A stretch of 64,000 nucleotides of DNA from a virus (IMGVR_UViG_3300033068_001916); one strand, 5' to 3'. Positions 8,966-64,000 are shown, numbered from the stretch's first letter. Notes: generated from the sequence alone by a model not told the origin. Made by a program: numbers and translations.

Positions 8966-8985
8966 TTTCATTTAAACAAAAACAT

Positions 8986-9740: not shown

Positions 9741-9741
9741 A

Positions 9742-10485: not shown

Positions 10486-10508
10486 TCCGAAATCTTTTCA
10501 TATATTTG
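10478..10508 (+). promoter_or_regulatory. conserved phage promoter
   Basis: tttttaatccgaaa ... TATATTTG at 10501-10508. Confidence 0.55.
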
Positions 10509-10523
10509 TATAAAATTTTATAT

Positions 10524-11060: not shown

Positions 11061-11092
11061 TCCTATCGATTTCTTTTAAAATTATACTTAAA

Positions 11093-13097: not shown

Positions 13098-13172
13098 GAA
13101 GAATTAGTAACAATATAAACGTGTTCTACACCTTTTAAACTAACTGGAGCACGTTTTAAAAAAAAAGAAATT

Positions 13173-13550: not shown

Positions 13551-13553
13551 ATT

Positions 13554-14045: not shown

Positions 14046-14334
14046 GGAAGAAAAAAATGAATACTGGAACTGCGTAATTGGTCCAGTTAAGGGAAGTGAA
14101 TTACCTCACGGAGCAGACTTTCCATTAAGATGGGCTGTTAGAGAAAAATTTGAGGAGATGGTTGGAAGAGATGCTGAGATTTGTTCATCCGGATGGGGAA
14201 TGGATCAAGAAACAAAAGATGTGTGTTCCAGTGTTAGTCTGCTTTCGATAACAGATCCAAGTGGTGAAAAGATGAGAGCGATAAAGGAGATATTAAATCC
14301 AAAGCCTGAATACCTACATTTTCCAAAATTATAG
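14038..14334 (+). CDS. hypothetical protein
   Basis: ORF. Confidence 0.45.
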   Translation: MDKEEKNEYWNCVIGPVKGSELPHGADFPLRWAVREKFEEMVGRDAEICSSGWGMDQETKDVCSSVSLLSITDPSGEKMRAIKEILNPKPEYLHFPKL

Positions 14335-14352
14335 GAATAAATCAAAAATAAT

Positions 14353-14383
14353 TTTTTTTATTCGAAACTTTTTCATATATTTG
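14353..14383 (+). promoter_or_regulatory. conserved phage promoter
   Basis: ttttttttattcgaaac ... TATATTTG at 14376-14383. Confidence 0.55.
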
Positions 14384-14419
14384 CCATGTTAATTTAAAAA
14401 CAATTAAAAACATAATAAG

Positions 14420-14878
14420 ATGACAAAAAGAGATCAAGTTTTAGGAAACTTCAAGGCGGTAGAAAAAGAAATCGAGAGATTAGAATCTAAACCCGCAGTA
14501 ATCTATGCAACAGCATCAAAATACATTCCATCTGTTGGATATGTAGCAGAATTGGGAAGCATCAAAGAGATTGTTAAGGCTCAAAAAACAATCAATGAAC
14601 AAAAAATTGGACTTGACGAGGCAGCAAAGGATTTAGGTCTTTCTGATGGAGATTTCCAAGAAGAGGAAGCAACTTTCATGGGCTATCCAATCCAGGTCTG
14701 GACGAATGACATCAAAAATCGTTTAGAAGAAATTAAATCTGAGCAGAGACTTGCTAAACTTAAAGCAGCAAGAAAAACTCTTAAGAAAAACCTTTCAAAA
14801 GACGACAAATTCGAATTGGAGATGGGGGGAATCAACGATGTACTTTCAACTTTAGACATCGAAGAGGGATCTAACTAA
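14420..14878 (+). CDS. hypothetical coiled-coil protein
   Basis: ORF after the conserved promoter and before a terminator. Confidence 0.55.
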   Translation: MTKRDQVLGNFKAVEKEIERLESKPAVIYATASKYIPSVGYVAELGSIKEIVKAQKTINEQKIGLDEAAKDLGLSDGDFQEEEATFMGYPIQVWTNDIKNRLEEIKSEQRLAKLKAARKTLKKNLSKDDKFELEMGGINDVLSTLDIEEGSN

Positions 14879-14899
14879 TCATAGAATAATTTACCTGAA

Positions 14900-14928
14900 A
14901 GCTGCATCTTTGGTGCAGCTTTTTTTTA
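14900..14928 (+). terminator. intrinsic terminator
   Basis: Hairpin agctgca-tctttgg-tgcagct followed by T8. Confidence 0.6.
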
Positions 14929-14944
14929 ACTCTAATTAATTTCT

Positions 14945-15589
14945 ATGAAGACAAGGTTAGACAATGAGTTTGACTTTCCTTCAATCACAAATCTTCTTTC
15001 ATTAAGGGATGAGGCCAAGAGAAGGAGGGAACTCAAAGATGAACTAGAAAAAATATCGCATAGCATAGACAGCTATGTTGATAAATTTATTAAGTGTAGC
15101 ATGTTTAGACTTGATAAATTATCAGATCTTGACTCTGTACTTTCACCGAGCGATGTCCATAAATTTTCATTACTTGATATCAGTTTCAGTAAGTATAAGA
15201 AAATGAAGCTGGCATCTGACATCATTCCAATAATACTAAAGGGTAAGGGGGTCGAATATTGTATGGCTTGGTTTTGTAAAACTGAGAGAAAAATAGATCT
15301 CTTCAAGGATAAGATTTTTGATGATGTTGAACCATGTTCAATATTCGTTGATTTTCAAAACAAGAAAATGTTTTTCATACCATCGAACGTAAGTCCTGAA
15401 ATAGGTATAGACTATAAGCGAAATGAACTGAGAATATCCTATAGAATACATAAAATTTTTAACCCACACAATGAGTTCACATGGAACCATCCGCTCAACG
15501 ATATTTATCCATGGACCCATAATTATCACATGAAATGTACGGTCGATATGGTAACACTAAAATCAGAAAGCACGGAAACAGGATGGTAA
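14945..15589 (+). CDS. hypothetical protein
   Basis: ORF. Confidence 0.5.
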   Translation: MKTRLDNEFDFPSITNLLSLRDEAKRRRELKDELEKISHSIDSYVDKFIKCSMFRLDKLSDLDSVLSPSDVHKFSLLDISFSKYKKMKLASDIIPIILKGKGVEYCMAWFCKTERKIDLFKDKIFDDVEPCSIFVDFQNKKMFFIPSNVSPEIGIDYKRNELRISYRIHKIFNPHNEFTWNHPLNDIYPWTHNYHMKCTVDMVTLKSESTETGW

Positions 15590-16125
15590 AAGATAAACAG
15601 ATAAAAGTAAACCTAATTAAGGCTCCTGCAGATTTCAACGATTTGCTGGATTTGCAGGATCTAAAGACGCAGATGTCCGTATTGGAACATTTGCAGGGTA
15701 ATCTGAGAAAGTATCAGATGGACTTTATTAAATCATTCATCAAGACTTCAGAGGAGGTGATAAAATGCATACCGCCAGAGAGTATTGGTGAATATGAAAT
15801 ACACAACTGCTATGATTATGATTTCGCCTATCCTGATCAAATTAAAAAGTTCAGGGAATCCAGAAAAAATTGGGTGGTCAATCACAGAGACAAAAGTATG
15901 ATTGAAATATATGATCTGGATGGACTTAAATTCAAGATGAAGGATAATATCCTCATAGCAAGTGATAAGAGGACTATTGAAATAAATAAGCAAGTATACT
16001 ACAGAGCGACTTATTTCGACGAACTCAAAAGAGATATTAAAATGTCATTCAGATTTGATACAAACGAATTAATAGATTGTAGGGATTATAGCTACATAAA
16101 CGAGGGTCAGGTAAAAAAATGGTAA
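15535..16125 (+). CDS. paralog family B protein
   Basis: VNLIKAPADFNDLLDLQDLKTQMSVLEHLQGNLRKYQMDFIKSF parallels the next gene. Confidence 0.5.
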   Translation: MYGRYGNTKIRKHGNRMVKDKQIKVNLIKAPADFNDLLDLQDLKTQMSVLEHLQGNLRKYQMDFIKSFIKTSEEVIKCIPPESIGEYEIHNCYDYDFAYPDQIKKFRESRKNWVVNHRDKSMIEIYDLDGLKFKMKDNILIASDKRTIEINKQVYYRATYFDELKRDIKMSFRFDTNELIDCRDYSYINEGQVKKW

Positions 16126-16766
16126 AGGAAGAAACAGTAAAGGTAAAGCTTCTAAAGTCCCCTGCCGACTTTACAGAGCTTCTAAATATGCAGACATTGC
16201 AAATGCAACTGGATGTATTTGAGCTAATTAAGAAAAATCTTGAAAGTTACCAGGAGAAATTTTTTGAATCGTTTACCAAATCTGGTAAGGAGGTTCTTGA
16301 ATATCTTCCCGTGGATGAACACGAAAAGTGGTTCGAGCAATTCAGAGATGATGATTGCAAAAGCCTTGAACAATACCTTAGGGAGAATGAAAGGTCATGG
16401 GAGTGGGGTGAAAGGGATCTTCAATACAAGCTTCAGGGGAATAAGATAACTAAGGCTAAATATGATAAACTTCTAAGCAACCTGAAATTTACCTGGGATA
16501 GGAGGTACATAGTTGACACAAAAAAGAAAAAACTCATCCAGTTGGATTATGGTGAAAGCAGAGGACATCAACACTACTCTCTAGAAATCAAATATAAAAG
16601 GAACGGAAAAGATAAGTTAACGGTTCAATTTGCATATGAGTGGACACCTTGGCACAACAACAGAGGACCAAGCCAAACAAGGAACACTTACTACCATTTC
16701 AATCTTGTTGATAACACCTATATAGGAATGTCAGAGGATAATGGTAACCAGGGAAGAGGATGGTAA
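16119..16766 (+). CDS. paralog family B protein
   Basis: VKLLKSPADFTELLNMQTLQMQLDVFELIKKNLESYQEKFFESF. Confidence 0.5.
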   Translation: MVKEETVKVKLLKSPADFTELLNMQTLQMQLDVFELIKKNLESYQEKFFESFTKSGKEVLEYLPVDEHEKWFEQFRDDDCKSLEQYLRENERSWEWGERDLQYKLQGNKITKAKYDKLLSNLKFTWDRRYIVDTKKKKLIQLDYGESRGHQHYSLEIKYKRNGKDKLTVQFAYEWTPWHNNRGPSQTRNTYYHFNLVDNTYIGMSEDNGNQGRGW

Positions 16767-17639: not shown

Positions 17640-18476
17640 ATGAAAAACTTTAGTCTTGGCGATCGTATGAAGGAATTCTACGAAGACCGTTTTAGATACT
17701 ATGTTCCACGCAGAACATACACATTAATCAGAATTGATGGAAAAGCTTTCCACACTTACACAAGGGGTTTGGAATCTCCGTTCGACGCAGGGTTAATCGT
17801 GGATATGAATGAAACCGCAGCTTACCTTTGTAAAAATATACAGGGAGCAAAATTTGGATACGTTCAATCCGACGAGATCAGTATATTGATCACGGATTTC
17901 GAGGAAAGAGACACACAGATGTGGTTCGATGGGAATTTACAAAAGATGGCTTCCGTTGCAGCTTCTATGGCGACCTCTAAATTCAACGAATTGAGAGTTG
18001 ACAGATACATCAGGGAAAAGTTTAATAGTGGGATTGAAACCATAACACCTTTGTGGATAGAAAATCTGAAAAGAGTTAAAAAAGCAGAGTTTGATGCGAG
18101 GGTATTTCAGATTCCACAGAAGAGCGAGGTTGAGAACTATTTTATATTCAGACAACAAGACGGAACTAGAAATTCGGTTCAATCAGTTGCTCAGAGTTTA
18201 TATTCACAGAGTGAATTAAACGGAAAGAAAGAAAAGGATATGCAGGAGATGATATTCCAGAAGGGAATTAATTGGAATGACTATCACTTCAGAGAGAAAA
18301 GAGGTGGAATTATCGCTAAAGTACCAACAATGGTTGAAGGTAGAGATGGTCAGGTTGAAAGACTTAAGTGGCAAATGATACCAACACCTATATTCACTCA
18401 GGAGAGGGAATTTATGGATCAGATGATTCCAGACTTCGTGATTAAAACGAAACACCAAGATGAAGTTGAAATATAA
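17640..18476 (+). CDS. thg1: tRNA-His guanylyltransferase Thg1-like protein (3'-5' polymerase that repairs tRNA 5' ends)
   Basis: RIDGKAFHTYTRGLESPFDAGLIVDMNETA ... FGYVQSDEISILITDF ... ASVAASMATSKF matches Thg1/TLP conserved blocks. Confidence 0.75.
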   Translation: MKNFSLGDRMKEFYEDRFRYYVPRRTYTLIRIDGKAFHTYTRGLESPFDAGLIVDMNETAAYLCKNIQGAKFGYVQSDEISILITDFEERDTQMWFDGNLQKMASVAASMATSKFNELRVDRYIREKFNSGIETITPLWIENLKRVKKAEFDARVFQIPQKSEVENYFIFRQQDGTRNSVQSVAQSLYSQSELNGKKEKDMQEMIFQKGINWNDYHFREKRGGIIAKVPTMVEGRDGQVERLKWQMIPTPIFTQEREFMDQMIPDFVIKTKHQDEVEI

Positions 18477-21336: not shown

Positions 21337-22242
21337 ATGATAATAAATCTTTCTGAACCGTGCAGCTACGGTATAAAATTTAAAGTCTCTAAATTTCCTG
21401 ACGGACAACAATCCATCACCATATTAGAGGGCGAAGTTCTCAAACATGAAATGTTTGAGAAAATGGAGCCAGTGGTAATAAAGTCAAGGATAACATCCTT
21501 CCTAGATCTTGAGCTAGTTATTTGTGCAAACAAAGCTCTTAGAGAGCTTGGAGTTAAAAAAACTTCCCTAGAGATATCATATCTATTGGGGGCAAGATCT
21601 GATAGAAAATTTGAAACAGGTAGCGTTAATTACATTAAAGAAGTACTTGCTCCTATTATCAATTCACAGAAATTCACCAGGGTAACAATACTTGATCCTC
21701 ATTCCGATGTGACAGAAGCTTGTATCAAGAAGTTCAAAAAATCAACACAAATCACTAGTGGACTGATAACATTTGTTCTTAGAGATTATTTCAATAACGG
21801 AACCATCGATTATTCAGGAATGCGTTTAATTTCTCCTGATGCAGGGGCTCTCAAAAAAGTTTATGATGTTGCCGAGTCTATCGGATACAGAGAAGAAATA
21901 GTTATAGCTTCCAAACACAGGGACGTTAAGACTGGAAAAATAACACATACTGATGTTCCAGTAAACGTGGATGATCTAGATATAGATTTCTTTATTCTAG
22001 ATGATATAATAGATGGAGGACGCACATTCATCGAGATTGCTAAAGCTCTAAGGGAAAAAGGAGCGACTGGTAAGATTTTCCTTGTCGCAACGCACGGAAT
22101 TTTTTCAGCTGGTTTAAAGCCATTAAATGAGAACTTCGATGGGATCTACACAACGAATAGCTATGTTGATATCAGCGATCCAGAATTCTCACTGAGAAAC
22201 GATAACGAGCTTCATAAACTTAAACAATTAAAAGTAATATAA
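21337..22242 (+). CDS. prs: ribose-phosphate pyrophosphokinase (PRPP synthetase)-like; may instead be an ADPR-PP synthetase of the NARP1 type
   Basis: PRPP-binding loop FFILDDIIDGGRTFIEIAKALREKGA versus vLVDDmIDTGGTl; N-terminal KFPDGQQSITILEGEV versus rFsDGEi.v.i.esvRG. Length is 301 aa. Confidence 0.65.
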   Translation: MIINLSEPCSYGIKFKVSKFPDGQQSITILEGEVLKHEMFEKMEPVVIKSRITSFLDLELVICANKALRELGVKKTSLEISYLLGARSDRKFETGSVNYIKEVLAPIINSQKFTRVTILDPHSDVTEACIKKFKKSTQITSGLITFVLRDYFNNGTIDYSGMRLISPDAGALKKVYDVAESIGYREEIVIASKHRDVKTGKITHTDVPVNVDDLDIDFFILDDIIDGGRTFIEIAKALREKGATGKIFLVATHGIFSAGLKPLNENFDGIYTTNSYVDISDPEFSLRNDNELHKLKQLKVI

Positions 22243-23963: not shown

Positions 23964-25040
23964 ATGGAAAAAAATAAACAGTTTTTAAAAGATTACTTAA
24001 ATGCATTTTCACCAGTTGGAAATGAAATCGAAGGCCAAAAGGTATGGGTTGACTATGTTAAGCCAATCGTTAATGAAATGAAAGTTGACGCATATGGAAC
24101 AGCATATGGTTTAATTAAAGGTTCGAATAGTGATAAAAAAGTGGTTCTGGAAGCACACTGTGACGAGATCTCATGGATTGTTACTGAAATTGAATCGAAC
24201 GGTATGGTGAGGGTTAAAACCAACGGAGGATCAGACAATATGATTGCACCATCGATGACAGTTATGGTTCATACACACGCAGGTAAAAAAGTACCTGGAG
24301 TTTTTGGATGGCCTGCTATTCACGTAAGAGAAAAAAGAGTTGAGATGGGTCCGGAAGTTCATGAACTTTGGATTGATCTTGGAGTTGATAGCTCAAAGAA
24401 AGTTTCAAAACTTGGAATTGAGGTAGGAAATTGTGTTACATTCGATCAAAAATTCTTTGAAATGGGCAAATACTACGTCGGTAGATCACTGGATAATAAG
24501 ATTGGTGGTTATATCATTGCAGAGGTTGCTAGGGAACTTAGAGAAGAAGGGACAATTCTCCCATTCGATCTTTATGTTGTTAATGCAATCCAGGAGGAAG
24601 TTGGTTTATTTGGTGCTAGATTAATTGCACAAACAATCAAGCCGGACATCGCATTGGTTCACGACGTTACGCACAACACAAACTCTCCTAAGATGAACAA
24701 GGCAAAATCTGGTGACATCAAGGGTGGTTCGGGTCCAGTTATCGAGTACTCGTCTCAGAATCACAAGGATCTAATTAATATAGTTAGAGATGTGGCTAAG
24801 GAGAAAGAGATACCATTGCAACTATCTGTTGGTTCTTATGGAAATGATACAGTGTCTTTCTTCTTAGAAAACGTACCTACTGTGATCGTAGCTAGTCCGT
24901 TAAAGTATATGCATACTACAATAGAGATGGTACATAAAGATGACGTATCGGCTGCAATACGGGTTTTTAAAGAGACGTTAAAAAAGTTGACCACTGGTAC
25001 CATAGTTACCATCAACGATCAAACACACAAATACGTATAA
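23964..25040 (+). CDS. M42-family metallo-aminopeptidase-like protein
   Basis: AHCDEISWIV ... SLDNKIGG resemble M42 (FrvX/YsdC) blocks; length is 358 aa. Confidence 0.45.
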   Translation: MEKNKQFLKDYLNAFSPVGNEIEGQKVWVDYVKPIVNEMKVDAYGTAYGLIKGSNSDKKVVLEAHCDEISWIVTEIESNGMVRVKTNGGSDNMIAPSMTVMVHTHAGKKVPGVFGWPAIHVREKRVEMGPEVHELWIDLGVDSSKKVSKLGIEVGNCVTFDQKFFEMGKYYVGRSLDNKIGGYIIAEVARELREEGTILPFDLYVVNAIQEEVGLFGARLIAQTIKPDIALVHDVTHNTNSPKMNKAKSGDIKGGSGPVIEYSSQNHKDLINIVRDVAKEKEIPLQLSVGSYGNDTVSFFLENVPTVIVASPLKYMHTTIEMVHKDDVSAAIRVFKETLKKLTTGTIVTINDQTHKYV

Positions 25041-31827: not shown

Positions 31828-33498
31828 ATGGAAAAATTAAACAAGACTTTTAAAATCAATCCCCTTTACGAATCGGATGGTTATAAGGTTGGACACAAAG
31901 CAATGTTAGCTGAAAATACATCGGTTGAATATTGGACTTGGATCCCTAGAAGCATAAAATATATGCACCCATCGATTGATGGCATTATGTCAGCCGGTGA
32001 ACAATTGGTATGGAGATACATTCACAGTAGTTTCCAGGAGTTATTCTTTGACCAACCAGTTGAAATGGCAGAAAAATTTGGTAGAGATATGTCCAAGTAT
32101 TTAATGATGGATTATGATGCTAATCACTTCTCTGAATTACATAAACTTGGTTATCTTCCGGTTAGAATCAAGGCTATACCAGAAGGGACATTCACAAAAC
32201 CAAACATTCCACACATGACAGGGATCAACACTGTTGATGGCTATGCTTGGCTTGGGCTTTATTTGGAAACGTTGGTATCTAAATTGGCTTGGCAATTACC
32301 TACAGCTGCTACTATTGCTCACAGATTCAAACAGAATGCTGTTGAGTGGGTTACCAAAACAGATCCAGAAAATCTTTGGTTAGCTGATTTTATGTGTCAC
32401 GATTTCCACAGCAGAGGTGGAAATCCATTCACATCAATCGCAGTTGGACTAGGACACGCAATGAGTAACTCAGGTAGTGACACATTAAACGTTATCCCAG
32501 CATCGAGATACTACTATGATTTCGACGAAAACGAAGTTCCAGTTTATAGCGTTAATGCTTCTGAACATAGTGTGACATGTACAGGTATTTTCTTCTACGA
32601 GAAAAAATTAAGAGGCGGTTTATTAAACCATGAAATTCTAAAATACTACCAATCTGACGCTACATCTGAAGGATCGGTTGACGCTCCAGATTACTTGGCA
32701 ATTGCGGAATTGCTTAATCTTCGTGATTGGCTTAAAAAATTCCCTAAAGGTATTCTTTCAGTGGTTTCGGACACAATGGATTTATGGAAAGTTATCACAC
32801 ATATTCTACCAAGGCTTAAAGAAGAAATTCTTGCTAGAGATGGTAAATTGGTAATTCGTCCTGATTCAGGAGATCCAGTAGATATTATCTGTGGTAAATA
32901 TCCAACATTTGGAGATGGATTTACATGCGAGGATAAAGGTGTTATTGAATTACTTTGGGATCTTTTCGGAGGCGAAGAAACTTCAACAGGGTACAAAAGA
33001 TTAGATTCACACATCGGAGCAATCTATGGGGATTCGATCAATCTAGAAAGACAAATTGCTATTTATACAAGATTAGCAGATAAAGGTTTTGCATCTACCA
33101 ATATCGTGGTTGGAGTTGGATCTTACACATATGTTATGTTAACAAGAGACTCTGCTGGATACGCAGCTAAAGGAGCTTGGTTCTCAACTAAAGAATTTGC
33201 AGGTGTTGATCCAGACGGTCAAACTGATTATACTATCACTGAGTACAATATCTATAAAGATCCCGTAACCGATAATGGTACTAAAAAATCATTAAAAGGT
33301 TTCTGCCAGGTATTCAATAACAGACCAGATGCTTTACCTTATGAGATTAAGTATGACGGGAAAGATCAATTGGAGGTAAATACCGAATGTACTAAAGAAC
33401 AGGAAGATGGTGGATTATTACAGCTAATCTATGAGGATGGCAAATTCCACAATCAGGCGAGTCTAACTGAGATTAGAGAACGTTTGAAAGTTCAATAA
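31828..33498 (+). CDS. nadV: nicotinamide phosphoribosyltransferase (NAMPT/NadV family; could be a NARP1 Namat-type enzyme)
   Basis: DGYKVGH versus DSYKVTH; HDFHSRGGNPFTS..SGSDTL versus HDFGYRG....KGTDTV; LVIRPDSGDP is the classic PRTase block. Length is 556 aa. Confidence 0.8.
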   Translation: MEKLNKTFKINPLYESDGYKVGHKAMLAENTSVEYWTWIPRSIKYMHPSIDGIMSAGEQLVWRYIHSSFQELFFDQPVEMAEKFGRDMSKYLMMDYDANHFSELHKLGYLPVRIKAIPEGTFTKPNIPHMTGINTVDGYAWLGLYLETLVSKLAWQLPTAATIAHRFKQNAVEWVTKTDPENLWLADFMCHDFHSRGGNPFTSIAVGLGHAMSNSGSDTLNVIPASRYYYDFDENEVPVYSVNASEHSVTCTGIFFYEKKLRGGLLNHEILKYYQSDATSEGSVDAPDYLAIAELLNLRDWLKKFPKGILSVVSDTMDLWKVITHILPRLKEEILARDGKLVIRPDSGDPVDIICGKYPTFGDGFTCEDKGVIELLWDLFGGEETSTGYKRLDSHIGAIYGDSINLERQIAIYTRLADKGFASTNIVVGVGSYTYVMLTRDSAGYAAKGAWFSTKEFAGVDPDGQTDYTITEYNIYKDPVTDNGTKKSLKGFCQVFNNRPDALPYEIKYDGKDQLEVNTECTKEQEDGGLLQLIYEDGKFHNQASLTEIRERLKVQ

Positions 33499-34409: not shown

Positions 34410-35407
34410 TGGGAAGTTTTTACACACTGTGTTCGATCACAAATCAGACTATTGTCGATGGTCAAGAGCTAATGGTTCAATTCATGATTCCAAGAAAAAC
34501 GCCGGAGGATAGCGGTGGATTATTAGTAAAAATGTTCATAGAGAGCACCAAGAAAAATGGCGTCGATGAAGCAGTAAAATCTTGGGAACAGAGCACAAAA
34601 AACTGGGGTAATAGAATGGAACATAAGGGAATGGAGGTTAGCAACGACGGAGCTACCTCTGACTATATTCCATTCGGTCCAGCAATCAGAGGTAAGTACA
34701 ACGATTGTGGAGACGTGGTTCCTTGCGACGATGGGGAAACTCAAAAGAGAGTTAAATTAATGGAAGGTATATTCTGTGGAATTCCATTTTCAAGTTTAAT
34801 GGACTTGTCAACTGATGACAGATGGTACACATATGGAATGAATGATGATGATAAAATGTGGAAGCTTAAAGGAGTTGATGATAAGTTACCTAGTTTTATA
34901 TTGGATTTGTGTAAGACTTTGACAGTTACGTATATTCATGCTCCAGTATACGATGCCCTAGTAGATCCTGAGTTTTCTCCTGAGGGAAGAAAAGACAGCT
35001 ATGAAAAGAAATGGCAGGAGGAGTATATCGAAAATATAAGAAAAGGAGTAGCTTCGATAATCAAAGTTGGTGAGGGTGACAGAGAGGATGAGGAATTCTC
35101 AGAAAAATTAATTCTTACGTATAGAAGATCGAAAATTTATTTTCTAGAACGAATGAGCGAGAAATTTTCATTGACCTTATTTGCTTCGTGCTTAAGAGAG
35201 GGGACTGACTTTGAATGGCTAATAGAGACATCCAGATTCTTATCGTCGATGAGCGGGATGTGTTTTAAATTACAAAGATCACAGTACGGATCTCAACACT
35301 TCAATTGGGAAGGATGGAAAAAAATAATCGGATCTTTGGAACCATCGATAGCTGAGATGAAATCTCATTACGGCTATGATGAAGACGAGGACGAAGATGA
35401 TATATAG
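34409..35407 (+). CDS. hypothetical protein
   Basis: 332-aa ORF. Confidence 0.5.
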   Translation: MGSFYTLCSITNQTIVDGQELMVQFMIPRKTPEDSGGLLVKMFIESTKKNGVDEAVKSWEQSTKNWGNRMEHKGMEVSNDGATSDYIPFGPAIRGKYNDCGDVVPCDDGETQKRVKLMEGIFCGIPFSSLMDLSTDDRWYTYGMNDDDKMWKLKGVDDKLPSFILDLCKTLTVTYIHAPVYDALVDPEFSPEGRKDSYEKKWQEEYIENIRKGVASIIKVGEGDREDEEFSEKLILTYRRSKIYFLERMSEKFSLTLFASCLREGTDFEWLIETSRFLSSMSGMCFKLQRSQYGSQHFNWEGWKKIIGSLEPSIAEMKSHYGYDEDEDEDDI

Positions 35408-36418: not shown

Positions 36419-38338
36419 ATGAAGGAACAAATTGCACATTTATTAGTTTATGCTTGGTGGATCATTCCAATTTTAGCAATACTATTTTACAAATTTACTC
36501 TCCGAATGTTTTTCGGGATGGTGATTATACCAGAGGATAAAATTGGTCTAGTTACCAAAAAATTCGTACTTTTCGGGTCAAACAAAACACTTCCGGACGG
36601 TAAGATCATTGCTCTTAATGGGGAACCTGGATTTCAAGCAGACACATTAGCACCAGGTTTATATTGGGGTTACTGGGCTTGGCAATACACGATTGACCAG
36701 TCACCTCTAGTAGTTATCGGAAAGGGAAAAATTGGTTTAATTACAGCTAAGGACGGTGCTCAATTACCAACAGGTTCCATTCTTGCCAGACACGTCGATA
36801 GCGATAACTATCAATCAGCCAGAGATTTCTTAGCAAATGGTGGACAACGAGGTAAGCAAGTAGGGTATCTTAATAACGGTGTATATCGTATAAATAGGCA
36901 TTTATTTGAAATCTATGATGCTGATATCACTTATATTGAAGATGGAATGGTTGGTGTAGTAACAGCATTAGATGGTACGCCACTTACTTTAGGCTCAATT
37001 GCAGGATCTGTTGTTGATGGACACAATAACTTCCAAGACTTTGATAAATTCTTAGAGAATGGCGGGCAAAGGGGTCTTCAGGTTCAGGTTATCCAAGCAG
37101 GTTCATATTCAATCAATCCATGGGCTATAGAGATAGAAAAACAAGAAATGACACAGATCCCAATTGGACACGTAGGTGTTGTTATTTCTTATGTTGGTGA
37201 CGAAGGTGAGGATACAACAGGAGAAACATTTAAGCACGGTAACATCGTTAAAAAAGGACAAAAAGGAGTTTGTATAACACCATTGGATCCGGGTAAATAT
37301 GCGATTAATCCATACACACAAAAAATCGAGATAGTCCCAACTACAAATTTAGTTCTTAACTGGGCGAATGCAAGATCGGAGTCACATAATTTAGATAAGA
37401 ATTTAAGTACCATTACTGTTAGATCTAAGGATGGATTCCCATTCAATCTTGACGTATCTCAGATCATACACATTCCTTCGACAGAGGCACCTAAGGTTAT
37501 TGCCAGATTTGGATCAATGTCAAATCTAGTATCACAGGTATTGGAGCCAACCATCGGCAACTATTTCCGTAACTCTGCTCAGGATTCTGATGTTATTGCG
37601 TTCTTATCAACAAGACAGCAACGTCAAAATGCAGCTAAAGAAAACATCGCTAAAGTTCTTGACGAGTACAACGTACATGCAGTAGATACATTAATTGGTG
37701 ACATCGTTCCACCAGAATCATTAATGAAAACTCTAACCGATCGTAAGATTGCTCAGGAGGAAGAGGTAACGTTCGAGACCCAGAAAAAAGCACAGGATCA
37801 GCGTAAAACACTAGAATCAGCTAAAGCTTTAGCTAATATGCAAGGTGAAATGGTAAGTGCACAACAATCGGTTGAGATCTCACAAAGAAAAGCGGAAGCT
37901 GAGGTTAAGAGATCTGAAGGGGAAGCAAAAGCAATCGAGATTAAAGCTGGAGCAGATGCGAAAGCTAAAGAGTTGATGGCAAAAGCTGATGCAACACAGA
38001 TCAAATTAACCGGGGAAGCTGAAGCGTCTAAGATTGAAGCAATTGGTAAGGCAACAGCAGAAGCTTACGAGAAACAAGTTAAAGCGATGGGTGCTGATAA
38101 CTTTGGACAATTAAAAGTTGTTGAGTCTATCGGTGTTAATAAGATCAAAATCATTCCTGATGTTCTTATCAGCGGAGATAATGGATCTGGTGGACCTATC
38201 TCAGGATTGCTTGGAATGGAGTTATTAAATCAGGTTAATGCTAAGAAAGCAGAAGCAGCAGCTAATGCAATCAGCGAAGGACCAGATTTTACGAACACCC
38301 AAGAAAAATCGGAAGGACCTAGAAAAGGTAATAAGTAA
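36419..38338 (+). CDS. flotillin/SPFH (band-7, YqiK-like) membrane protein
   Basis: N-terminal TM segment. C-terminal Ala/Glu/Lys-rich repeats (AEAEVKRSEGEAKAIEIKAGADAKAKELMAKADA...) are typical of the flotillin tail. Length is 639 aa. Confidence 0.6.
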   Translation: MKEQIAHLLVYAWWIIPILAILFYKFTLRMFFGMVIIPEDKIGLVTKKFVLFGSNKTLPDGKIIALNGEPGFQADTLAPGLYWGYWAWQYTIDQSPLVVIGKGKIGLITAKDGAQLPTGSILARHVDSDNYQSARDFLANGGQRGKQVGYLNNGVYRINRHLFEIYDADITYIEDGMVGVVTALDGTPLTLGSIAGSVVDGHNNFQDFDKFLENGGQRGLQVQVIQAGSYSINPWAIEIEKQEMTQIPIGHVGVVISYVGDEGEDTTGETFKHGNIVKKGQKGVCITPLDPGKYAINPYTQKIEIVPTTNLVLNWANARSESHNLDKNLSTITVRSKDGFPFNLDVSQIIHIPSTEAPKVIARFGSMSNLVSQVLEPTIGNYFRNSAQDSDVIAFLSTRQQRQNAAKENIAKVLDEYNVHAVDTLIGDIVPPESLMKTLTDRKIAQEEEVTFETQKKAQDQRKTLESAKALANMQGEMVSAQQSVEISQRKAEAEVKRSEGEAKAIEIKAGADAKAKELMAKADATQIKLTGEAEASKIEAIGKATAEAYEKQVKAMGADNFGQLKVVESIGVNKIKIIPDVLISGDNGSGGPISGLLGMELLNQVNAKKAEAAANAISEGPDFTNTQEKSEGPRKGNK

Positions 38339-38429: not shown

Positions 38430-38963
38430 ATGATAACACTCATAAAACCTGATAACGAAACGTTATCACCATCGGATGATACTATATCCATCTTTCTGGG
38501 AGGAACCATAGAAATGGGGAATTCAGATGATTGGCAAACCGAAATCTATAATAGACTAAAAGATATAGACGAGACCATTGGGTTTTTCGATAATATAAAT
38601 CTTTTTAATCCAAGAAGAGACTCGTGGGATTCATCATGGGTACAGGAGCAATCCAATCCACAATTCAATGGACAGGTTAACTGGGAACTTGATAATATTG
38701 AGGATTCCAATATAATCTTTTTTAATATTCTACCAGAATCAAAAAGTCCAATAACACTTATGGAGATAGGATTATGCAAGGATAAAGGTGCTTCTGTTAT
38801 AGTCTGCTGTCCTGATGGTTTCTATAGAAAGGGTAATGTTGATGTAGTTTGCTCAAGATATGGTATGCAGCAATATAAAGATATTGATTCAGCATTTGGT
38901 GCTTTACTTACTGAGATAAATAGAGCAGGTAGAAGCAAAAATGTAATAACAAAAAATAAATAA
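38430..38963 (+). CDS. nucleoside 2-deoxyribosyltransferase-like protein
   Basis: ISIFLGGTIEMG...W matches the NDT-like FLGG block. Confidence 0.4.
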   Translation: MITLIKPDNETLSPSDDTISIFLGGTIEMGNSDDWQTEIYNRLKDIDETIGFFDNINLFNPRRDSWDSSWVQEQSNPQFNGQVNWELDNIEDSNIIFFNILPESKSPITLMEIGLCKDKGASVIVCCPDGFYRKGNVDVVCSRYGMQQYKDIDSAFGALLTEINRAGRSKNVITKNK

Positions 38964-38965
38964 AA

Positions 38966-39865
38966 ATGAGCGAAATTAAAAAACACATAGCTGTATCACA
39001 AGTAGAATCAGGCCATGGGACTTTAAGCTATCTAACATCAGAACAACTTGAAACAAAAACTGGTGAAACTGCTGAAATAGGCATAGCTTTAAGAAATAGA
39101 CACGTCGATCTTGAAACATATCAGGCAAAATCTGAGATTAGTCAGGAACAGATCAGTGATCTTAATTTATTCCATGGTATAAATGCTATTGAAATGGTCG
39201 AATCTGCATTATTGAACGAATCGAGAATTTCACAAGAAAAACAAATCTATAAGAAACTTAAATTGCTTGGTTACGAATCAAACAGAAAGTTATGGACAAA
39301 ATTTCAGCTTTTCGCTAATAAATGGACTGGATACATACCGATGGTCAATGTATCGGAAGCAGGATCACTCATCAGAAGAATTACATTATTATCTAATATC
39401 ATAGCTACGACATCTAGAATGGGACCAGCGAAATTTATTATAATCAGTCCTGGCCTATTACATCACTTCGTAAATGAGAATGGATTCACACCAGAAGATC
39501 ACGATTCATTAATGGATATAAATGCTGGTAGCATCTATAAATGTGGAACATACAGGGATAATTTGGAGATACTTATAAATCCTACACTTAAATGGACAGA
39601 TAAAAGAGTTGTTATCGGGAGAGATACACTTAGTCCGAACGAAGGTGTATATCTTCTTGAACATATTGAGGGTCCACAATATACAAGAATAGATAGAGTT
39701 AATTACGGATCACTAGTTCCTATGACTGAAACCATATTAAGAACAAGATATGGGTTAGTTCACACACCTAATGCATCAAAAAATTATATAACAATAACAT
39801 GTACAGAGAAAAAACATAATATTATTACACATATTATGGAAAAGTACTTTAAAAGAAAAAAATAA
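38966..39865 (+). CDS. hypothetical protein
   Basis: 299-aa ORF. Confidence 0.5.
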   Translation: MSEIKKHIAVSQVESGHGTLSYLTSEQLETKTGETAEIGIALRNRHVDLETYQAKSEISQEQISDLNLFHGINAIEMVESALLNESRISQEKQIYKKLKLLGYESNRKLWTKFQLFANKWTGYIPMVNVSEAGSLIRRITLLSNIIATTSRMGPAKFIIISPGLLHHFVNENGFTPEDHDSLMDINAGSIYKCGTYRDNLEILINPTLKWTDKRVVIGRDTLSPNEGVYLLEHIEGPQYTRIDRVNYGSLVPMTETILRTRYGLVHTPNASKNYITITCTEKKHNIITHIMEKYFKRKK

Positions 39866-58083: not shown

Positions 58084-59730
58084 ATGGGTAATATAGTAAA
58101 ATTTAATCCTTCACTTAGATCCGAGAATTCTATACAATCAGGTAATTTTAATATTGGTGTGAATAATACTCCAACAAATTTATCTGAATTTTATACAGGT
58201 ATTTGTCCAATAATTGGGGGGTATACAATTTACATTAATAAATCTTCTAATGGTCCATCAATCTACGCACCTAAAAATGATACTCAATTAATTGGGATAA
58301 CTAATAATTTGGGAGGTAATGTAACAACCGCTGAGGGTGCTTTGGTTTGGATAAACTCACAGAGTAATATGACCGTATTGAATAATAACTATCCTTCAAT
58401 TGTTACTAGTGGTCTTGTTCAAAATTGGGACTCGGGATTTGTATCATCATATCCAAAAACCGGTACAACTTGGAAAAATTTAAGCGTTGGAGGAATTAAC
58501 TCATCTTTAGTTAATGGTGTAGGATATAATAGTGAAAATTTTGGTAGTTTAGTTTTTGATGGGGTAGATGATGTAATAACCTCAAGCGCTGGTAACAATT
58601 ATCCATACCCTTATCATACTTTTGAAATTTGGGTAAAAAGTAGTGGATTAGCTCCGGGGATGACTCAAGGTGGTTTATTAGGTCTTGACTATGGTAGAGT
58701 GGTGACAATCACATCAACCGGAAATATTCAATATTCATTGTACACAGGTGTTGGTGCTAATCAAGGATTACTTTTTGCAGTTTCAACTACAGGTGTTAAT
58801 GTATTTGATAATAATTGGCACCACATAGTATGTTCAAGAGGTGAAAGTGTTTATGAAATGTATGTGGATGGTGTGTTGAATAAAACAGGGGGTAACGGTG
58901 GTCAATCAACGTGGAACGGTTTAAATACTTGGAGTAGTATGACTTCGGTTATAGGTAATAACCCAAACAATAGTAATCTTAAATTATTAGGGAATATTTC
59001 CTCAGTAAGAATTTATAATAGACAACTTACATTACAAGAAGTTTTACAAAATTATCGTGCCGGTCTCCAAAGATATATACCCACTAATGGGTTAGTTCTT
59101 TCATTAGATGCTCAAAACACCAATCTTTATGCTACCTCACCAACAACAGCGTATGATGTTAGTGGAAATGATATAAATGGTGTTTTAACTAATGGTGTTC
59201 AATATATTAGTGATGGTAATGGTTCTTGGAGTTTTGATGGTGTGGATGATAGGATAGTAACAACTTTAAATACTTTATCATCAAGTACAACTTGGACAGT
59301 ATGGGTTAAAAGAACTCAATCCATAAATGTTTATAATATGATTATGGGTATGTACTTACCTTACTTCGCATTTAGAAGTAATGGTAGTATTCATTTTTCT
59401 AATAGAATAAACGGGGTTCAACAAAATTTATATGCAACATCAAATTTAGTTGATAATGTTTGGTATAATATTACATTCGTTTCGTCATTTTCTGAGGGTA
59501 ATACAACAATGTTAATTTATTTAAACGGTGTGTTACAAACACAAACAACTTATACGGGTCAACAACCAACAACAACTGATAATAGTTTTAGATTAGGTAC
59601 TTGGTGGTCGGGTGGAAGTGAACAGTTTAGAGGGAATATTGGTGAGGTTAGTATATACAACAGAGCGTTAAGTACGTCAGAAATAACAACAATATTCAAC
59701 GCAACAAAATCAAGATATGGAATACAATAA
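58084..59730 (+). CDS. structural protein with two LamG/concanavalin-like lectin domains (putative tail fibre or receptor-binding protein)
   Basis: GNISSVRIYNRQLTLQEVLQNY and GNIGEVSIYNRALSTSEITTIFN are the hallmark LamG C-terminal strands. Confidence 0.55.
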   Translation: MGNIVKFNPSLRSENSIQSGNFNIGVNNTPTNLSEFYTGICPIIGGYTIYINKSSNGPSIYAPKNDTQLIGITNNLGGNVTTAEGALVWINSQSNMTVLNNNYPSIVTSGLVQNWDSGFVSSYPKTGTTWKNLSVGGINSSLVNGVGYNSENFGSLVFDGVDDVITSSAGNNYPYPYHTFEIWVKSSGLAPGMTQGGLLGLDYGRVVTITSTGNIQYSLYTGVGANQGLLFAVSTTGVNVFDNNWHHIVCSRGESVYEMYVDGVLNKTGGNGGQSTWNGLNTWSSMTSVIGNNPNNSNLKLLGNISSVRIYNRQLTLQEVLQNYRAGLQRYIPTNGLVLSLDAQNTNLYATSPTTAYDVSGNDINGVLTNGVQYISDGNGSWSFDGVDDRIVTTLNTLSSSTTWTVWVKRTQSINVYNMIMGMYLPYFAFRSNGSIHFSNRINGVQQNLYATSNLVDNVWYNITFVSSFSEGNTTMLIYLNGVLQTQTTYTGQQPTTTDNSFRLGTWWSGGSEQFRGNIGEVSIYNRALSTSEITTIFNATKSRYGIQ

Positions 59731-59974: not shown

Positions 59975-60083
59975 TAGTTCATAATTACATAATCATTAAG
60001 ATTAATCAGGACACAAACAATATTACATAGTCCAATATTCAATCAAAAAAATAAGGGATATATAGAACAAATAAAGTTACAAA

Positions 60084-63000
60084 TTGGCTCAATATCCACA
60101 ATCACCCCGAATAGGTCAAGCATTTTTATCCAACGATAACGGAATCCAACAATTATGGATTTGGAGTGGATATCAGTGGCTATTAGCAAACATATCAGGT
60201 GGTGGAGGAACCAGTGGTACTAGCGGTACATCAGGAAGTGGAGGTAGTGGAACTGGTACATCTGGTACTAGTGGAACTTCAGGAGCTGATGGTACATCCG
60301 GTACATCTGGAGGCATAGGGGAATCAGGTACTTCAGGTACTAGCGGATCAATAGGACCAGCGGGTACTAGTGGAACTTCAGGCAGCTCTGGTACTAGCGG
60401 AAGCTCGGGTACTTCTGGATCATCAGGTACTAGTGGAACTTCAGGTAGCTCCGGAACCTCAGGTTCATCAGGAACTAGCGGGACTAGAGGAACTTCAGGT
60501 TCATCAGGAACTAGCGGATCGTCAGGTAGCTCGGGAACTTCAGGTTCATCAGGAACTAGTGGAACTTCAGGTTCATCAGGAACTTCAGGTTCATCAGGAA
60601 CTTCAGGTTCATCAGGAACTTCAGGTTCATCAGGAACTAGTGGAACTAGTGGAACTAGTGGAAGCTCAGGTACTTCTGGATCATCAGGAACTAGTGGTAC
60701 CAGTGGAAGCTCAGGTACTTCGGGATCATCAGGAACTAGTGGTACCAGTGGAAGCTCAGGTACTTCAGGATCATCAGGAACTAGTGGTACCAGTGGAAGC
60801 TCAGGTACTTCAGGATCATCAGGAACTAGTGGTACTAGAGGAACCAGTGGAAGCTCAGGTACTTCAGGTTCTTCAGGAACTAGTGGAAGCTCAGGTACTT
60901 CAGGATCATCAGGAACTAGTGGAAGCTCAGGTACTTCTGGATCATCAGGTACTAGTGGAAGCTCAGGTACTAGCGGTACCTCGGGGACTAGTGGTTTAAG
61001 TGGGGTTGATGGAACATCGGGAAGCTCGGGTAGTTCTGGAACTAGTGGAAGCTCAGGTACTTCAGGTTCATCAGGTACTAGTGGAAGTTCGGGTTCTTCA
61101 GGTACTAGTGGAAGCTCAGGTACTTCAGGTACTAGTGGATCATCAGGTACTAGTGGAAGCTCAGGTTCTTCAGGTACTTCTGGATCATCAGGTACTAGTG
61201 GAAGCTCAGGAACTTCAGGTTCTTCAGGAACTAGTGGAAACTCAGGTTCTTCAGGAACTAGCGGAAGCTCAGGTTCTTCAGGTACTAGTGGATCATCAGG
61301 TTCATCAGGTTCTTCAGGTTCTTCAGGAACTAGTGGAACTTCAGGTTCTTCAGGTTCTTCAGGTTCATCAGGAACTAGTGGAAGCTCAGGTTCTTCAGGT
61401 TCTTCAGGTACTAGTGGAAGCTCAGGTACTTCAGGAACTAGTGGAAGCTCAGGAACTAGTGGAAGCTCAGGTACTAGTGGTACTTCAGGTTCTTCAGGTA
61501 CTAGTGGATCATCAGGTTCATCAGGAACTAGTGGAAGCTCAGGTACTTCAGGAACTAGAGGTACTAGTGGTACTTCAGGTTCTTCAGGCACTAGTGGAAG
61601 CTCAGGTACTAGTGGATCATCAGGAACTTCAGGTACTTCAGGTACTTCAGGTACTTCGGGTACTAGTGGATCCTCAGGTACTAGTGGATCCTCAGGTACT
61701 AGTGGATCCTCAGGTACTAGTGGAAGTTCGGGTTCTTCAGGAACTAGCGGATCATCAGGTTCTTCAGGAACTAGTGGTACTTCAGGTTCTTCAGGAACTA
61801 GTGGAAGTTCAGGTACTTCAGGTTCATCAGGTTCTTCAGGAACTAGTGGAAGCTCAGGTACTTCAGGAACTTCAGGTACTAGTGGTACTTCAGGTTCTTC
61901 AGGAACTAGTGGAAGCTCAGGTACTAGTGGATCATCAGGTACTTCAGGTTCTTCGGGTACCAGTGGAAGCTCAGGTACTTCGGGATCATCAGGAACTAGC
62001 GGATCATCAGGAACTTCAGGTTCTTCAGGAACTAGTGGAAGCTCAGGTACTAGTGGATCCTCAGGAACTAGTGGATCATCAGGAACTTCAGGTTCTTCAG
62101 GAACTAGTGGAAGCTCAGGTACTAGTGGATCATCAGGTACTTCAGGTTCTTCAGGAACTAGTGGATCCTCAGGTACTAGTGGATCCTCAGGTACTTCAGG
62201 TACTAGTGGATCATCAGGAACTTCAGGTACTAGTGGAATAAACGGGGTTAATGGCGCATCTGGAACTTCAGGTTCATCTGGTACTTCAGGAAATAGTGGA
62301 AGCTCAGGTTCTTCAGGAACTAGTGGAAGCTCAGGTACTTCAGGTTCTTCAGGAACTAGTGGTACTTCAGGTTCTTCAGGAACTAGAGGTACTAGTGGAA
62401 GCTCAGGTACTTCAGGTTCTTCAGGAACTAGTGGAAGCTCAGGTACTTCAGGTACTAGTGGAAGCTCAGGTACTTCAGGTTCTTCAGGAACTAGTGGAAG
62501 CTCAGGTACTTCAGGTACTAGAGGTACTAGTGGAAGCTCAGGTACTTCAGGATCATCAGGAACCAGTGGAAGCTCAGGTACTTCTGGATCATCAGGAACT
62601 AGTGGTACTAGTGGAAGCTCAGGTACTTCAGGTACTTCAGGAACTAGTGGAAGCTCAGGTACTTCAGGTAGTAGTGGGGAAAGTGGTATATCAGCAGGTC
62701 AAATATACTATTTCAACGAAAGTCAAAATTCTGATGTTTCAGGATATAAAGTACTATCATTATTACCATCAGGAGCAGCACAGCAAACACTAACAACAGC
62801 TCTATCAGGTGGTCAACAAAATGTGATGGTCGCTGATTATATAACACCTGAATTAGGTTTTGCTGTAATTCCTGCAGGCGTACAGAGATTCCATATACAT
62901 TATTTAAAACAAGCATCAAATGATAACATTGATGCTTATGTGGAAATACAATTGGCCAATTCGGCGGGGACACCAATAGGACCAACATTATCGACAAATG

Positions 63001-64000
63001 TTGGGTTAATCGGATGGGTTAGTTCTGTTGTGCCTGTCGAGATTAATCTTGACGTTATTTTAACAACGACAACAATCGATCCAACAAACAGGATGATTGC
63101 TAGATTATATCTAAGTAATAATGATGCAACGGCGCATTCGGTTGTTTATTATACGGAGGGAAATTCTTACTACTCATTCGTTCTTACATCCGTTGGTGCA
63201 ATTGCTGGAACATCAGGATCATCAGGAACTAGTGGAAGCTCAGGTACTTCTGGATCATCAGGTACTAGTGGAAGCTCAGGTACTTCAGGAACTAGTGGAA
63301 GCTCAGGAACTTCAGGAACTAGGGGAACTAGTGGAAGCTCAGGTACTTCGGGATCATCAGGAACTAGCGGTACTAGCGGAAGCTCAGGTACTTCGGGTAC
63401 TAGTGGTACTTCCGGATCAAGTGGTACTAGTGGAAGCTCAGGTACTAGCGGAACAAGGGGTACTTCGGGATCATCAGGAACTAGTGGTACTAGTGGGAGC
63501 TCAGGTACTTCCGGATCTTCGGGAACTAGTGGAAGCTCAGGTACTTCAGGTACATCGGGAACTAGTGGAAGCTCAGGTACTTCCGGATCATCAGGGACTA
63601 GTGGAAGCTCAGGTACTTCCGGATCATCAGGGACTAGTGGAAGCTCTGGAACTAGTGGATCTTCAGGAACAAGTGGTATAAGTGGATCTTCAGGAACTAG
63701 TGGTATAAGTGGATCTTCAGGAACTAGTGGATCTTCAGGAACAAGTGGTATAAGTGGATCTTCAGGAACTAGTGGAAGCTCTGGAACTAGTGGAACTAGA
63801 GGAACAAGTGGAAGCTCTGGAACTAGTGGATCTTCAGGAACAAGTGGATCTTCAGGAACAAGTGGTATAAGTGGAAGCTCTGGAACTAGTGGATCTTCAG
63901 GAACAAGTGGATCTTCAGGAACAAGTGGTACTAGGGGAACTAGTGGATCTTCAGGAACAAGTGGTATAAGTGGAAGCTCTGGAACTAGTGGATCTTCAGG
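60084..64000 (+). CDS. giant collagen-like (Gly-X-Y) repeat protein, proline-free (GTS/GSS triplets), with an internal ~175-aa non-collagenous domain; putative fibre protein; 3' partial
   Basis: Frame 0 is open from the stop at 60072 to the window end. There is no in-frame ATG; the candidate TTG start at 60084 is followed by AQYPQSPRIGQAFLSNDNGIQQLWIWSGYQWLLANISGGGG. Gly occupies every third codon from 60198 to 62690, a globular insert spans 62691-63212, and Gly-X-Y repeats resume to 64000. All six frames are open over the repeat blocks (60198-62690 and 63213-64000), and all listed ORFs in 60173-63681 are frame artefacts. Confidence 0.6.
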   Translation, partial: MAQYPQSPRIGQAFLSNDNGIQQLWIWSGYQWLLANISGGGGTSGTSGTSGSGGSGTGTSGTSGTSGADGTSGTSGGIGESGTSGTSGSIGPAGTSGTSGSSGTSGSSGTSGSSGTSGTSGSSGTSGSSGTSGTRGTSGSSGTSGSSGSSGTSGSSGTSGTSGSSGTSGSSGTSGSSGTSGSSGTSGTSGTSGSSGTSGSSGTSGTSGSSGTSGSSGTSGTSGSSGTSGSSGTSGTSGSSGTSGSSGTSGTRGTSGSSGTSGSSGTSGSSGTSGSSGTSGSSGTSGSSGTSGSSGTSGTSGTSGLSGVDGTSGSSGSSGTSGSSGTSGSSGTSGSSGSSGTSGSSGTSGTSGSSGTSGSSGSSGTSGSSGTSGSSGTSGSSGTSGNSGSSGTSGSSGSSGTSGSSGSSGSSGSSGTSGTSGSSGSSGSSGTSGSSGSSGSSGTSGSSGTSGTSGSSGTSGSSGTSGTSGSSGTSGSSGSSGTSGSSGTSGTRGTSGTSGSSGTSGSSGTSGSSGTSGTSGTSGTSGTSGSSGTSGSSGTSGSSGTSGSSGSSGTSGSSGSSGTSGTSGSSGTSGSSGTSGSSGSSGTSGSSGTSGTSGTSGTSGSSGTSGSSGTSGSSGTSGSSGTSGSSGTSGSSGTSGSSGTSGSSGTSGSSGTSGSSGTSGSSGTSGSSGTSGSSGTSGSSGTSGSSGTSGSSGTSGSSGTSGTSGSSGTSGTSGINGVNGASGTSGSSGTSGNSGSSGSSGTSGSSGTSGSSGTSGTSGSSGTRGTSGSSGTSGSSGTSGSSGTSGTSGSSGTSGSSGTSGSSGTSGTRGTSGSSGTSGSSGTSGSSGTSGSSGTSGTSGSSGTSGTSGTSGSSGTSGSSGESGISAGQIYYFNESQNSDVSGYKVLSLLPSGAAQQTLTTALSGGQQNVMVADYITPELGFAVIPAGVQRFHIHYLKQASNDNIDAYVEIQLANSAGTPIGPTLSTNVGLIGWVSSVVPVEINLDVILTTTTIDPTNRMIARLYLSNNDATAHSVVYYTEGNSYYSFVLTSVGAIAGTSGSSGTSGSSGTSGSSGTSGSSGTSGTSGSSGTSGTRGTSGSSGTSGSSGTSGTSGSSGTSGTSGTSGSSGTSGSSGTSGTRGTSGSSGTSGTSGSSGTSGSSGTSGSSGTSGTSGTSGSSGTSGSSGTSGSSGTSGSSGTSGSSGTSGSSGTSGISGSSGTSGISGSSGTSGSSGTSGISGSSGTSGSSGTSGTRGTSGSSGTSGSSGTSGSSGTSGISGSSGTSGSSGTSGSSGTSGTRGTSGSSGTSGISGSSGTSGSS
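60198..64000 (+). repeat. tandem 9-bp-unit repeats (ggaactagt / ggaagctca / ggtacttca variants), interrupted at 62691-63212
   Basis: Direct inspection: strictly periodic GGN-WCN-WSN units. Confidence 0.85.

Follow-up and report, generated by a model that had tools for sequence, protein, structure and literature searches.

A TTG-initiated, almost proline-free collagen-like protein with an embedded jelly-roll domain, a probable adhesion fibre of a large phage

The viral DNA stretch IMGVR_UViG_3300033068_001916 (64,000 nucleotides, referred to below in its entirety as the window) ends within a long open reading frame (ORF), which starts at a TTG codon at position 60084 and encodes Gly-X-Y triplets, as in collagen, interrupted by a globular domain that we term the knob. 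We consider it likely that this ORF specifies a modular, trimeric, collagen-like adhesion fibre of a large phage, which probably infects Bacteroidota. Two orthologous loci, L165 and L167 (on contigs of 118.8 kb and 434.5 kb, respectively), were found with a degenerate DNA pattern for the N-terminal peptide and were used for comparison. The elements of the window locus are the following:

60057-60065, plus strand: GATATATAG, an upstream motif located 18 nt 5' of the start codon; candidate phage promoter or initiation-context element
60072-60074, plus strand: in-frame TAA, the upstream limit of the ORF; L165 and L167 likewise have a TAA 4 codons 5' of the TTG
60084-60086, plus strand: TTG start codon, the sole canonical start that follows the TAA ahead of the repeats; kept in L165 and L167
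60084-60197, plus strand: N-terminal module of 38 aa (M/L-AQYPQSPRIGQAFLSNDNGIQQLWIWSGYQWLLANIS), shared with L165 and L167; may serve in attachment to the virion or in nucleation
60198-62693, plus strand: collagen-like region 1, 832 aa of Gly-X-Y (GTS/GSS), aa 39-870, with one register break near 60252
62694-63206, plus strand: embedded knob of 171 aa (AGQIYYFNES...SVGAIA), a predicted jelly roll resembling galactose-binding domains and carbohydrate-binding modules (CBMs)
63207-64000, plus strand: collagen-like region 2, at least 264 aa of Gly-X-Y, running into the window end; the C-terminus lies beyond the window

The ORF that runs from 60084 to the window end is a real gene. Its frame is free of stops up to base 63998, at the window edge, and comprises 1,305 codons, in line with an earlier reading of the DNA (the original prediction) that had put the protein at over 1300 aa. 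The same prediction held that all six frames are open for 2.5 kb, which is not the case: between 60198 and 62690 the coding frame and one antisense frame contain no stop, a second sense frame contains 4, and the remaining three contain 78, 87 and 190. Coding in the antisense or the +1 frame was rejected, since the conserved knob and N-terminal module are found in the Gly-X-Y frame alone; the other ORFs (PEEPEVPLVP, ELQVLQ) are low-complexity by-products of the repeats. They had been dismissed as artefacts from the outset, correctly, although their number had been given as seven and six overlapping ORFs of at least 50 aa were listed, those leaving the window end being omitted. An ATG-initiated gene in another frame was looked for in L165 and L167, with a negative result. 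Extension of the ORF upstream through a recoded stop was likewise rejected: the bounding stop is a TAA, the codon that ends 62 of the 72 long plus-strand ORFs, and readthrough of TAG or TGA yields no long ORFs in the gene-poor stretches of the window.

No in-frame ATG, GTG or second TTG is present between the TAA at 60072-60074 and the repeats, so that the TTG is the only start available, as had been predicted. The window, L165 and L167 have the first codons TTG-GCN-CAR in common, and in all three loci GATATATAG lies 18-19 nt 5' of the TTG (at 5973 in L165 and at 2312 in L167); beyond this motif, their upstream DNA is unrelated. The motif occurs four times in the window, compared to approximately one expected occurrence, and four copies were reached in 2 of 100 shuffles. 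All four lie 17-19 nt 5' of the start codon of a long ORF (three ATG, one TTG). Besides the copy at the fibre gene, these are:

2550-2558, plus strand: GATATATAG, ahead of the ATG at 2578
35399-35407, plus strand: GATATATAG, ahead of the ATG at 35425
55916-55924, minus strand: GATATATAG, ahead of the ATG at 55898 (minus strand)

TTG 60084 is thus placed where ATGs are found relative to the motif, which supports its being a genuine, conserved start codon. GATATATAG itself is a candidate phage promoter or initiation-context motif, common to three related large-phage contigs.

The N-terminal module is identical to that of L165 in 37 of 38 residues and to that of L167 in 31 (82-97%), with ratios of synonymous to non-synonymous changes over the 38 codons of 7:1 and 12:7, respectively. 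It had no match in Pfam, PHROG or NCBIfam; a search of a protein database with the 42-aa N-terminus returned no candidates, while the degenerate DNA pattern did find relatives. The parts downstream of the module differ between the loci, and in L167 they are entirely different. Phage tail fibres couple a constant N-terminal module for attachment to distal modules that vary, and the 38-aa segment, which had been thought anchor-like, likewise behaves as a conserved module with varied distal parts and would fit such an anchor.

Following the register break, which reads GSG-T-GTS, 271 unbroken triplets extend to 62693, and 88 more follow the knob up to the window edge. Gly is present in all 359 triplets of these two main runs; X is occupied by Thr (193) or Ser (148) in 341 of them (95%), and Y by Ser in 343 (96%) and by Arg in 9. 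About 12 other residue types occur at X or Y, none at the Gly position. The layout originally described, with Gly at every third codon from 60198, almost only Thr and Ser elsewhere, a non-repetitive domain after ca. 830 codons and triplets again up to the edge, was borne out by these counts. The repeats had also been called proline-free; proline is indeed nearly absent, but not strictly so, as one is found in a GPA triplet (1 of 718 X/Y positions). Charge is scarce as well, with 9 Arg and 6 acidic residues in ca. 1,100 repeat residues. The Pfam Collagen hidden Markov model (PF01391) matched with 469 bits (E = 3e-144), compared to a gathering cut-off of 27.2, and Gly recurs at every third residue bar the one register break near the N-terminus.

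The first two bases of the Gly codons are fixed while the third varies (GGA 195, GGT 152, GGG 9, GGC 3), and TCN and AGY codons for Ser are both in use, at X as well as at Y. Fixed Gly, variable X and Y and mixed Ser codons together indicate selection on the protein, and not merely a DNA repeat. TRF reported periods between 9 and 153 bp, all of them imperfect (60-96% matches), so that the 9-bp periodicity originally noted is present, though not as a clean 9-bp repeat. Exact internal repeats reach 72 bp at most, and every 77-mer occurs just once; with reads of 100-150 bp the ambiguous stretches can therefore be bridged, and ordinary reads would in principle suffice to assemble the tract. The repeat pattern is far above chance and is seen in independent assemblies too.

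The knob gave no match in Pfam, PHROGs, NCBIfam or, by sequence, the PDB, and a tblastn search of cultured phage genomes found none. A phmmer search of 1.84 billion cluster representatives returned 345 relatives at E <= 1e-3, 131 of them at E <= 1e-10; this family is uncharacterised and has no Pfam entry. AlphaFold2, supplied with a 17-sequence alignment, produced a confident all-beta model (pLDDT 87, pTM 0.84), the nearest folds to which are the C-terminal domain of CocE/NonD hydrolases and CBMs. On the basis of this model we call the knob a jelly roll of galactose-binding/CBM-like fold, which may bind a glycan. QRFHxHxLK, DPTNRM and YTEG are conserved motifs of the knob. In BFVD, the nearest models are uncultured-phage proteins annotated as 'Collagen triple helix repeat' (46-57% identity, TM 0.91-0.93), and the more distant neighbours of the same fold include phage proteins with an intramolecular-chaperone/Peptidase_S74 domain. 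Two other identities were rejected: a TNF/C1q-like (BclA-type) knob, the TNF/C1q topology not being the best structural match, and membership in CocE/NonD (PepX_C), neither sequence membership nor an association with an alpha/beta-hydrolase being found.

Pattern searches revealed the knob to be encoded in 168 IMG/VR loci and 173 metagenome loci, the loci returned being at most 83% identical to the window; many of them are JGI (Ga-) metagenome contigs, which we take to be of lake origin. Searches for sequence past the window end, by megablast of 20 kb against the INPHARED phages and with an exact 47-mer against IMG/VR, gave no match. The family was characterised over 162 loci, in which, with few exceptions, Gly-X-Y surrounds the knob. 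All family ORFs with their 5' end on the contig start with ATG, and the TTG start belongs to the particular N-terminal module of the window. The proteins are built as beads on a string, in which different N-terminal modules, several kinds of 115-175-aa knobs (distant paralogues of the window knob among them) and different C-termini are freely combined. The ORF of L001 (IMGVR_UViG_3300042397_001305, 4160-16126) is complete, with 3,989 aa, 3,090 Gly-X-Y residues and four different knob/terminal domains, and that of L092 (Ga0315909_10006838), which neither begins nor stops on its contig, runs through 3,333 Gly-X-Y residues without a break; to our knowledge, these tracts are among the longest collagen-like tracts in phages. 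Low proline content is the rule: it is below 2% in 78 of the 83 loci having at least 300 Gly-X-Y residues, in which the triplets are of the types GTS/GSS, GLS/GIS, GTN/GTD or GNQ/GEQ/GFQ, and across the family proline makes up 0.6% of X/Y positions. Contig ends cut 76 of the 162 ORFs, leaving 86 complete, and genes of this family routinely break metagenome assemblies. We found no description in the literature of the family, of proline-free phage collagens or of giant collagen-like phage fibres.

The knob-sharing relatives also bear on function. Some end in Peptidase_S74 or Phage Tail Collar modules, or carry CBM_5_12 (Pfam). Peptidase_S74, the "chaperone of endosialidase", is a chaperone of trimeric fibres and spikes, and all three modules are characteristic of the trimeric tail fibres and spikes of phages. 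The proposal that the window ORF encodes a long fibre protein is supported in this indirect manner. The flanks of four complete relatives, scanned against PHROG, were mostly unannotated and largely uninformative.

The gene preceding the fibre gene had been said to encode a protein with two LamG domains, and it does:

58084-59730, plus strand: gene with two LamG/ConA-like domains (two Laminin_G_3 stretches; Pfam 1.6e-34, PHROG 'virion structural protein'), probably encoding a surface or structural protein

This neighbour does not, however, support the fibre assignment, for which it had been invoked. L165 is syntenic with the window (82% identity) up to window position 58090; past this point it carries a different 454-aa gene and an IS607-like serine-recombinase/TnpB pair instead of the LamG gene, and homology resumes exactly at GATATATAG. 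A functional link to the LamG gene as a conserved feature was rejected, as the gene is absent at the syntenic position in L165. The IS607-like pair (4196-5933 in L165; a MerR/serine recombinase of 190 aa and a TnpB of 390 aa) lies directly 5' of the orthologous fibre gene. In L167 the gene 5' of the fibre gene (15-2282) encodes another collagen-like protein, of 755 aa, with GAT/GSN/GIQ triplets, which suggests a cluster of collagen-like fibre genes in that contig. The locus looks like a variable adhesin locus.

Elsewhere in the window, a gp23-like capsid protein is encoded, whose distant relatives, with 20-25% identity, come from the Tenacibaculum phages PTm1/PTm5 and from uncultured phages of 460-735 kb. 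The ORFs concerned are:

38966-39865: gp23-like capsid ORF, 299 aa, matching positions 115-365 only of the Pfam Gp23 profile
38430-38963: ORF directly 5' of the capsid ORF, in another frame, with a separate PHROG (phrog_30579)

The two could represent a split or frameshifted capsid gene, or else the upstream ORF could be a distinct scaffold or protease-like gene. Auxiliary genes, at 17640-18476, 21337-22242, 31828-33498, 23964-25040 and 36419-38338, encode a set composed of a Thg1-like tRNA-His guanylyltransferase, PRPP-synthetase-like and NAMPT proteins (NAD salvage), an M42 aminopeptidase and a 639-aa SPFH/Band-7 protein. The window genes have A-rich leaders without a Shine-Dalgarno sequence, and TAnnTTTG is found ahead of many of them (for example at 5511, 5917, 14420, 16839, 20579, 30395, 33595, 36419, 46909 and 48845). 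TAnnTTTG is a promoter element of Bacteroidota (sigma-A -7 type), and because of these promoters and the lack of Shine-Dalgarno sequences the host is probably a member of this phylum. Matches to the Rfam tRNA model (30-47 bits), not called by ARAGORN, were observed at 7721-7779, 7981-8104, 52821-52948 and 53040-53170, in the two stretches of the window without long ORFs (7716-9200 and 51400-54360); three of the four carry an insertion of ca. 55-75 nt, and they may be intron-containing or degenerate phage tRNAs.

In the fibre that we propose, the short conserved N-terminal module would dock the protein on the virion, and three chains would associate into a collagen-type stalk of (Gly-Thr/Ser-Ser)n. 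If helical, the visible stalk would measure at least 310 nm (832 + 264 = 1,096 residues, at 0.286 nm each), and those of the longest relatives approximately 0.9-1 micrometre. The 171-aa jelly-roll knob would interrupt the stalk and most likely contact a glycan of the host surface, while the C-terminus, beyond the window, probably bears further knob/receptor-binding and trimerisation modules, as in the relatives. The imperfect, 9-bp-periodic DNA may permit changes in stalk length and the swapping of knob modules by recombination.

Several observations weigh against this proposal, most of them pertaining to the stalk. The trimer and the triple helix are read from the sequence pattern, and the C-terminus, with any trimerisation domain, falls outside the window. 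The tract is essentially without proline and nearly without charged residues, and thus does not display the imino acids or charged pairs at X/Y that are typical of stable triple helices. In host-guest peptide scales (reportedly those of Persikov et al. 2000), Thr or Ser in the X position and Ser in the Y position rank low as formers of a triple helix. The stable bacterial and prophage collagens characterised so far use proline at 19-50% of X positions together with networks of charged and polar residues (PMC8968730, PMC3368898). One possible explanation for such a composition is that the Gly/Ser/Thr tracts are flexible, disordered tethers, possibly O-glycosylated in the manner of mucins, that space the knobs, the protein still serving as an adhesin of the virion or of the cell surface. 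Glycosylated linkers are typically rich in Ser and Thr, and a glycosyltransferase-like gene adjoins the fibre gene of one relative (L027); the window ORFs that were scanned included no glycosyltransferase. A disordered linker, however, needs no periodic Gly, yet Gly is invariant over the 359 triplets of the window and the 3,333 residues of L092. Moreover, X and Y are strongly non-equivalent. Among 28,444 triplets from 136 distinct related ORFs, Glu was counted 952 times at X and 75 times at Y, Leu and Ile were over 12-fold and Phe ca. 24-fold commoner at X, and Gln was commoner at Y by 5:1. Arg was found solely at Y (9 of 9 in the window repeats, 15 of 15 in L165), the position in which it stabilises the triple helix most, on par with hydroxyproline. 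As this asymmetry runs in the direction known from collagen, it was counted in favour of the triple helix. L167 has a canonical, proline-rich collagen tract (GSPGPVGPTGPTGPSGGPVGPTGPTG) at the same place, directly after the shared N-terminal module. The trimer-specific modules of the relatives likewise count in favour of a helix. A glycosylated spacer had already been raised as an alternative in the original prediction; in view of the invariant Gly, the X/Y asymmetry, the confinement of Arg to Y and the proline-rich orthologue we regard it as rather unlikely. We lean, by a modest degree, towards a triple helix, possibly of a low thermal stability fit for cool waters or helped by modification, with the disordered or glycosylated tether as its chief competitor.

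The remaining objections concern the attachment of the fibre, its knob and its length. No tail or baseplate cluster is apparent around its gene, as the neighbours form no recognisable tail module and gave no informative matches save the 'virion structural protein' of the LamG gene. The fibre may accordingly be carried elsewhere than on the tail, decorating the capsid or the neck in the manner of a 'head fibre' or whisker, or be displayed on the infected cell, a scenario which departs from our proposal solely in the attachment site. The distant capsid relatives belong to the Tenacibaculum jumbo phages PTm1/PTm5, which reportedly have head-fibre-like appendages, to judge by a title cited in reviews, and a collagen-like capsid binder is known in gp12 of SPP1 (PMC7602432). 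The tail collar and S74 modules of the relatives are nevertheless typical of tail fibres and spikes, and no capsid-binding domain was recognised; we therefore consider a non-tail location improbable. As for the knob, its suggested glycan binding derives from fold similarity, and the domain that it matches best, a non-catalytic one found in esterases and peptidases, is 12-17% identical. The repeat copy number, finally, comes from short-read assembly, and the array length or the entire tract could be an artefact, produced by mis-assembly or by expansion of a much shorter repeat. Assemblers do struggle with such repeats, judging by the 76 of 162 related ORFs that end at contig edges and by the L165 orthologue, which leaves its contig within the repeat. 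Against this stand the imperfection of the repeats, whose longest exact copy (72 bp) and lack of a repeated 77-mer allow them to be spanned by 100-150 bp reads, the 86 complete ORFs of relatives, which come from independent assemblies and contain as many as 3,090 Gly-X-Y residues, and a frame unbroken over 3.9 kb. We hold an artefact to be very unlikely, and retain the adhesion fibre as the probable product of the ORF.

A bolder version of the fibre proposal, which we put forward tentatively and hold to be possible though doubtful, is that the nearly proline- and charge-free (Gly-Thr/Ser-Ser)n forms a true triple helix, held by networks of Ser/Thr hydroxyls and water, by the sparse Arg at Y or by glycosylation, and builds fibres of several hundred nm to ca. 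1 micrometre. If so, they would greatly exceed in length every phage fibre characterised so far, would constitute a new collagen sequence class, and would point to an unrecognised 'long-reach' strategy of host capture by freshwater phages. A triple helix would widen collagen sequence space to tracts with no imino acids and almost no charge, with a bearing on the rules of collagen folding and on recombinant biomaterials; appendages several times the length of the virion would alter the picture of how large aquatic phages adsorb to sparse hosts. Regardless of the helix, the analysis defines a knob domain family, a TTG-initiated N-terminal module, putatively an anchor, and a candidate promoter motif, GATATATAG, in a group of large phages whose hosts are probably Bacteroidota. 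The interest of the protein lies in its proline- and charge-poor collagen-like composition, its scale and its uncharacterised knob family.

Among known proteins, the UniProt/BFVD entries A0A6J5SWS4, A0A6J5N627 and A0A6J5NH96 of uncultured Caudovirales phages are true members of the family, having the same knob inside collagen-repeat proteins; they are shorter (620-1,235 aa) and carry the automatic annotation 'Collagen triple helix repeat', and we found no functional or structural study of them. A more general likeness is to BclA of the Bacillus exosporium, in which Thr-rich Gly-X-Y filaments of variable repeat number bear a beta-sandwich C1q/TNF-like head and in which glycosylation of Thr stabilises and decorates the filament. 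Thr-rich Gly-X-Y of variable repeat number and a beta-sandwich globular domain are thus found in both, whereas the collagen stalk of BclA is Pro-rich and short. EPclA of an E. coli O157:H7 prophage and its relatives resemble the window protein as modular Gly-X-Y fibres with flanking trimerisation or binding modules, shuffled among phages (PMC3368898). They differ in being short, with Pro at nearly half of the X positions, many charged residues and a melting temperature of 42 C (PMC3368898), in contrast to the window repeats, which are known from their sequence and contain 1 Pro, 9 Arg and 6 acidic residues in ca. 1,100.

The collagen-like extension of Tal, from cos and pac siphophages of S. 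thermophilus, is 100-500 aa long and is interrupted by a single CBM or by two, after which come a further linker of collagen type and a C-terminal domain of small size; Tal and the host-adhesion proteins of these phages vary in length between 890 and 2,020 aa (PMC7533335). The window protein has the same succession of collagen stalk, inserted CBM-like domain and collagen linker, and while Tal is a trimeric phage adhesion protein, the window protein would be a trimer by inference. The N-terminus of Tal is gp27-like and ca. 400 aa long, compared to a module of 38 aa in the window protein that is not gp27-like; the insert of Tal is a BppA-like CBM, whereas the best match of the window knob is the CocE/NonD C-terminal jelly roll; and the window stalk is longer (at least 1,096 aa), is practically devoid of Pro and belongs to a phage whose host is probably of a different phylum. 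Tal nonetheless offers the closest described architecture, and the window protein would work in a similar manner while standing outside the Tal family.

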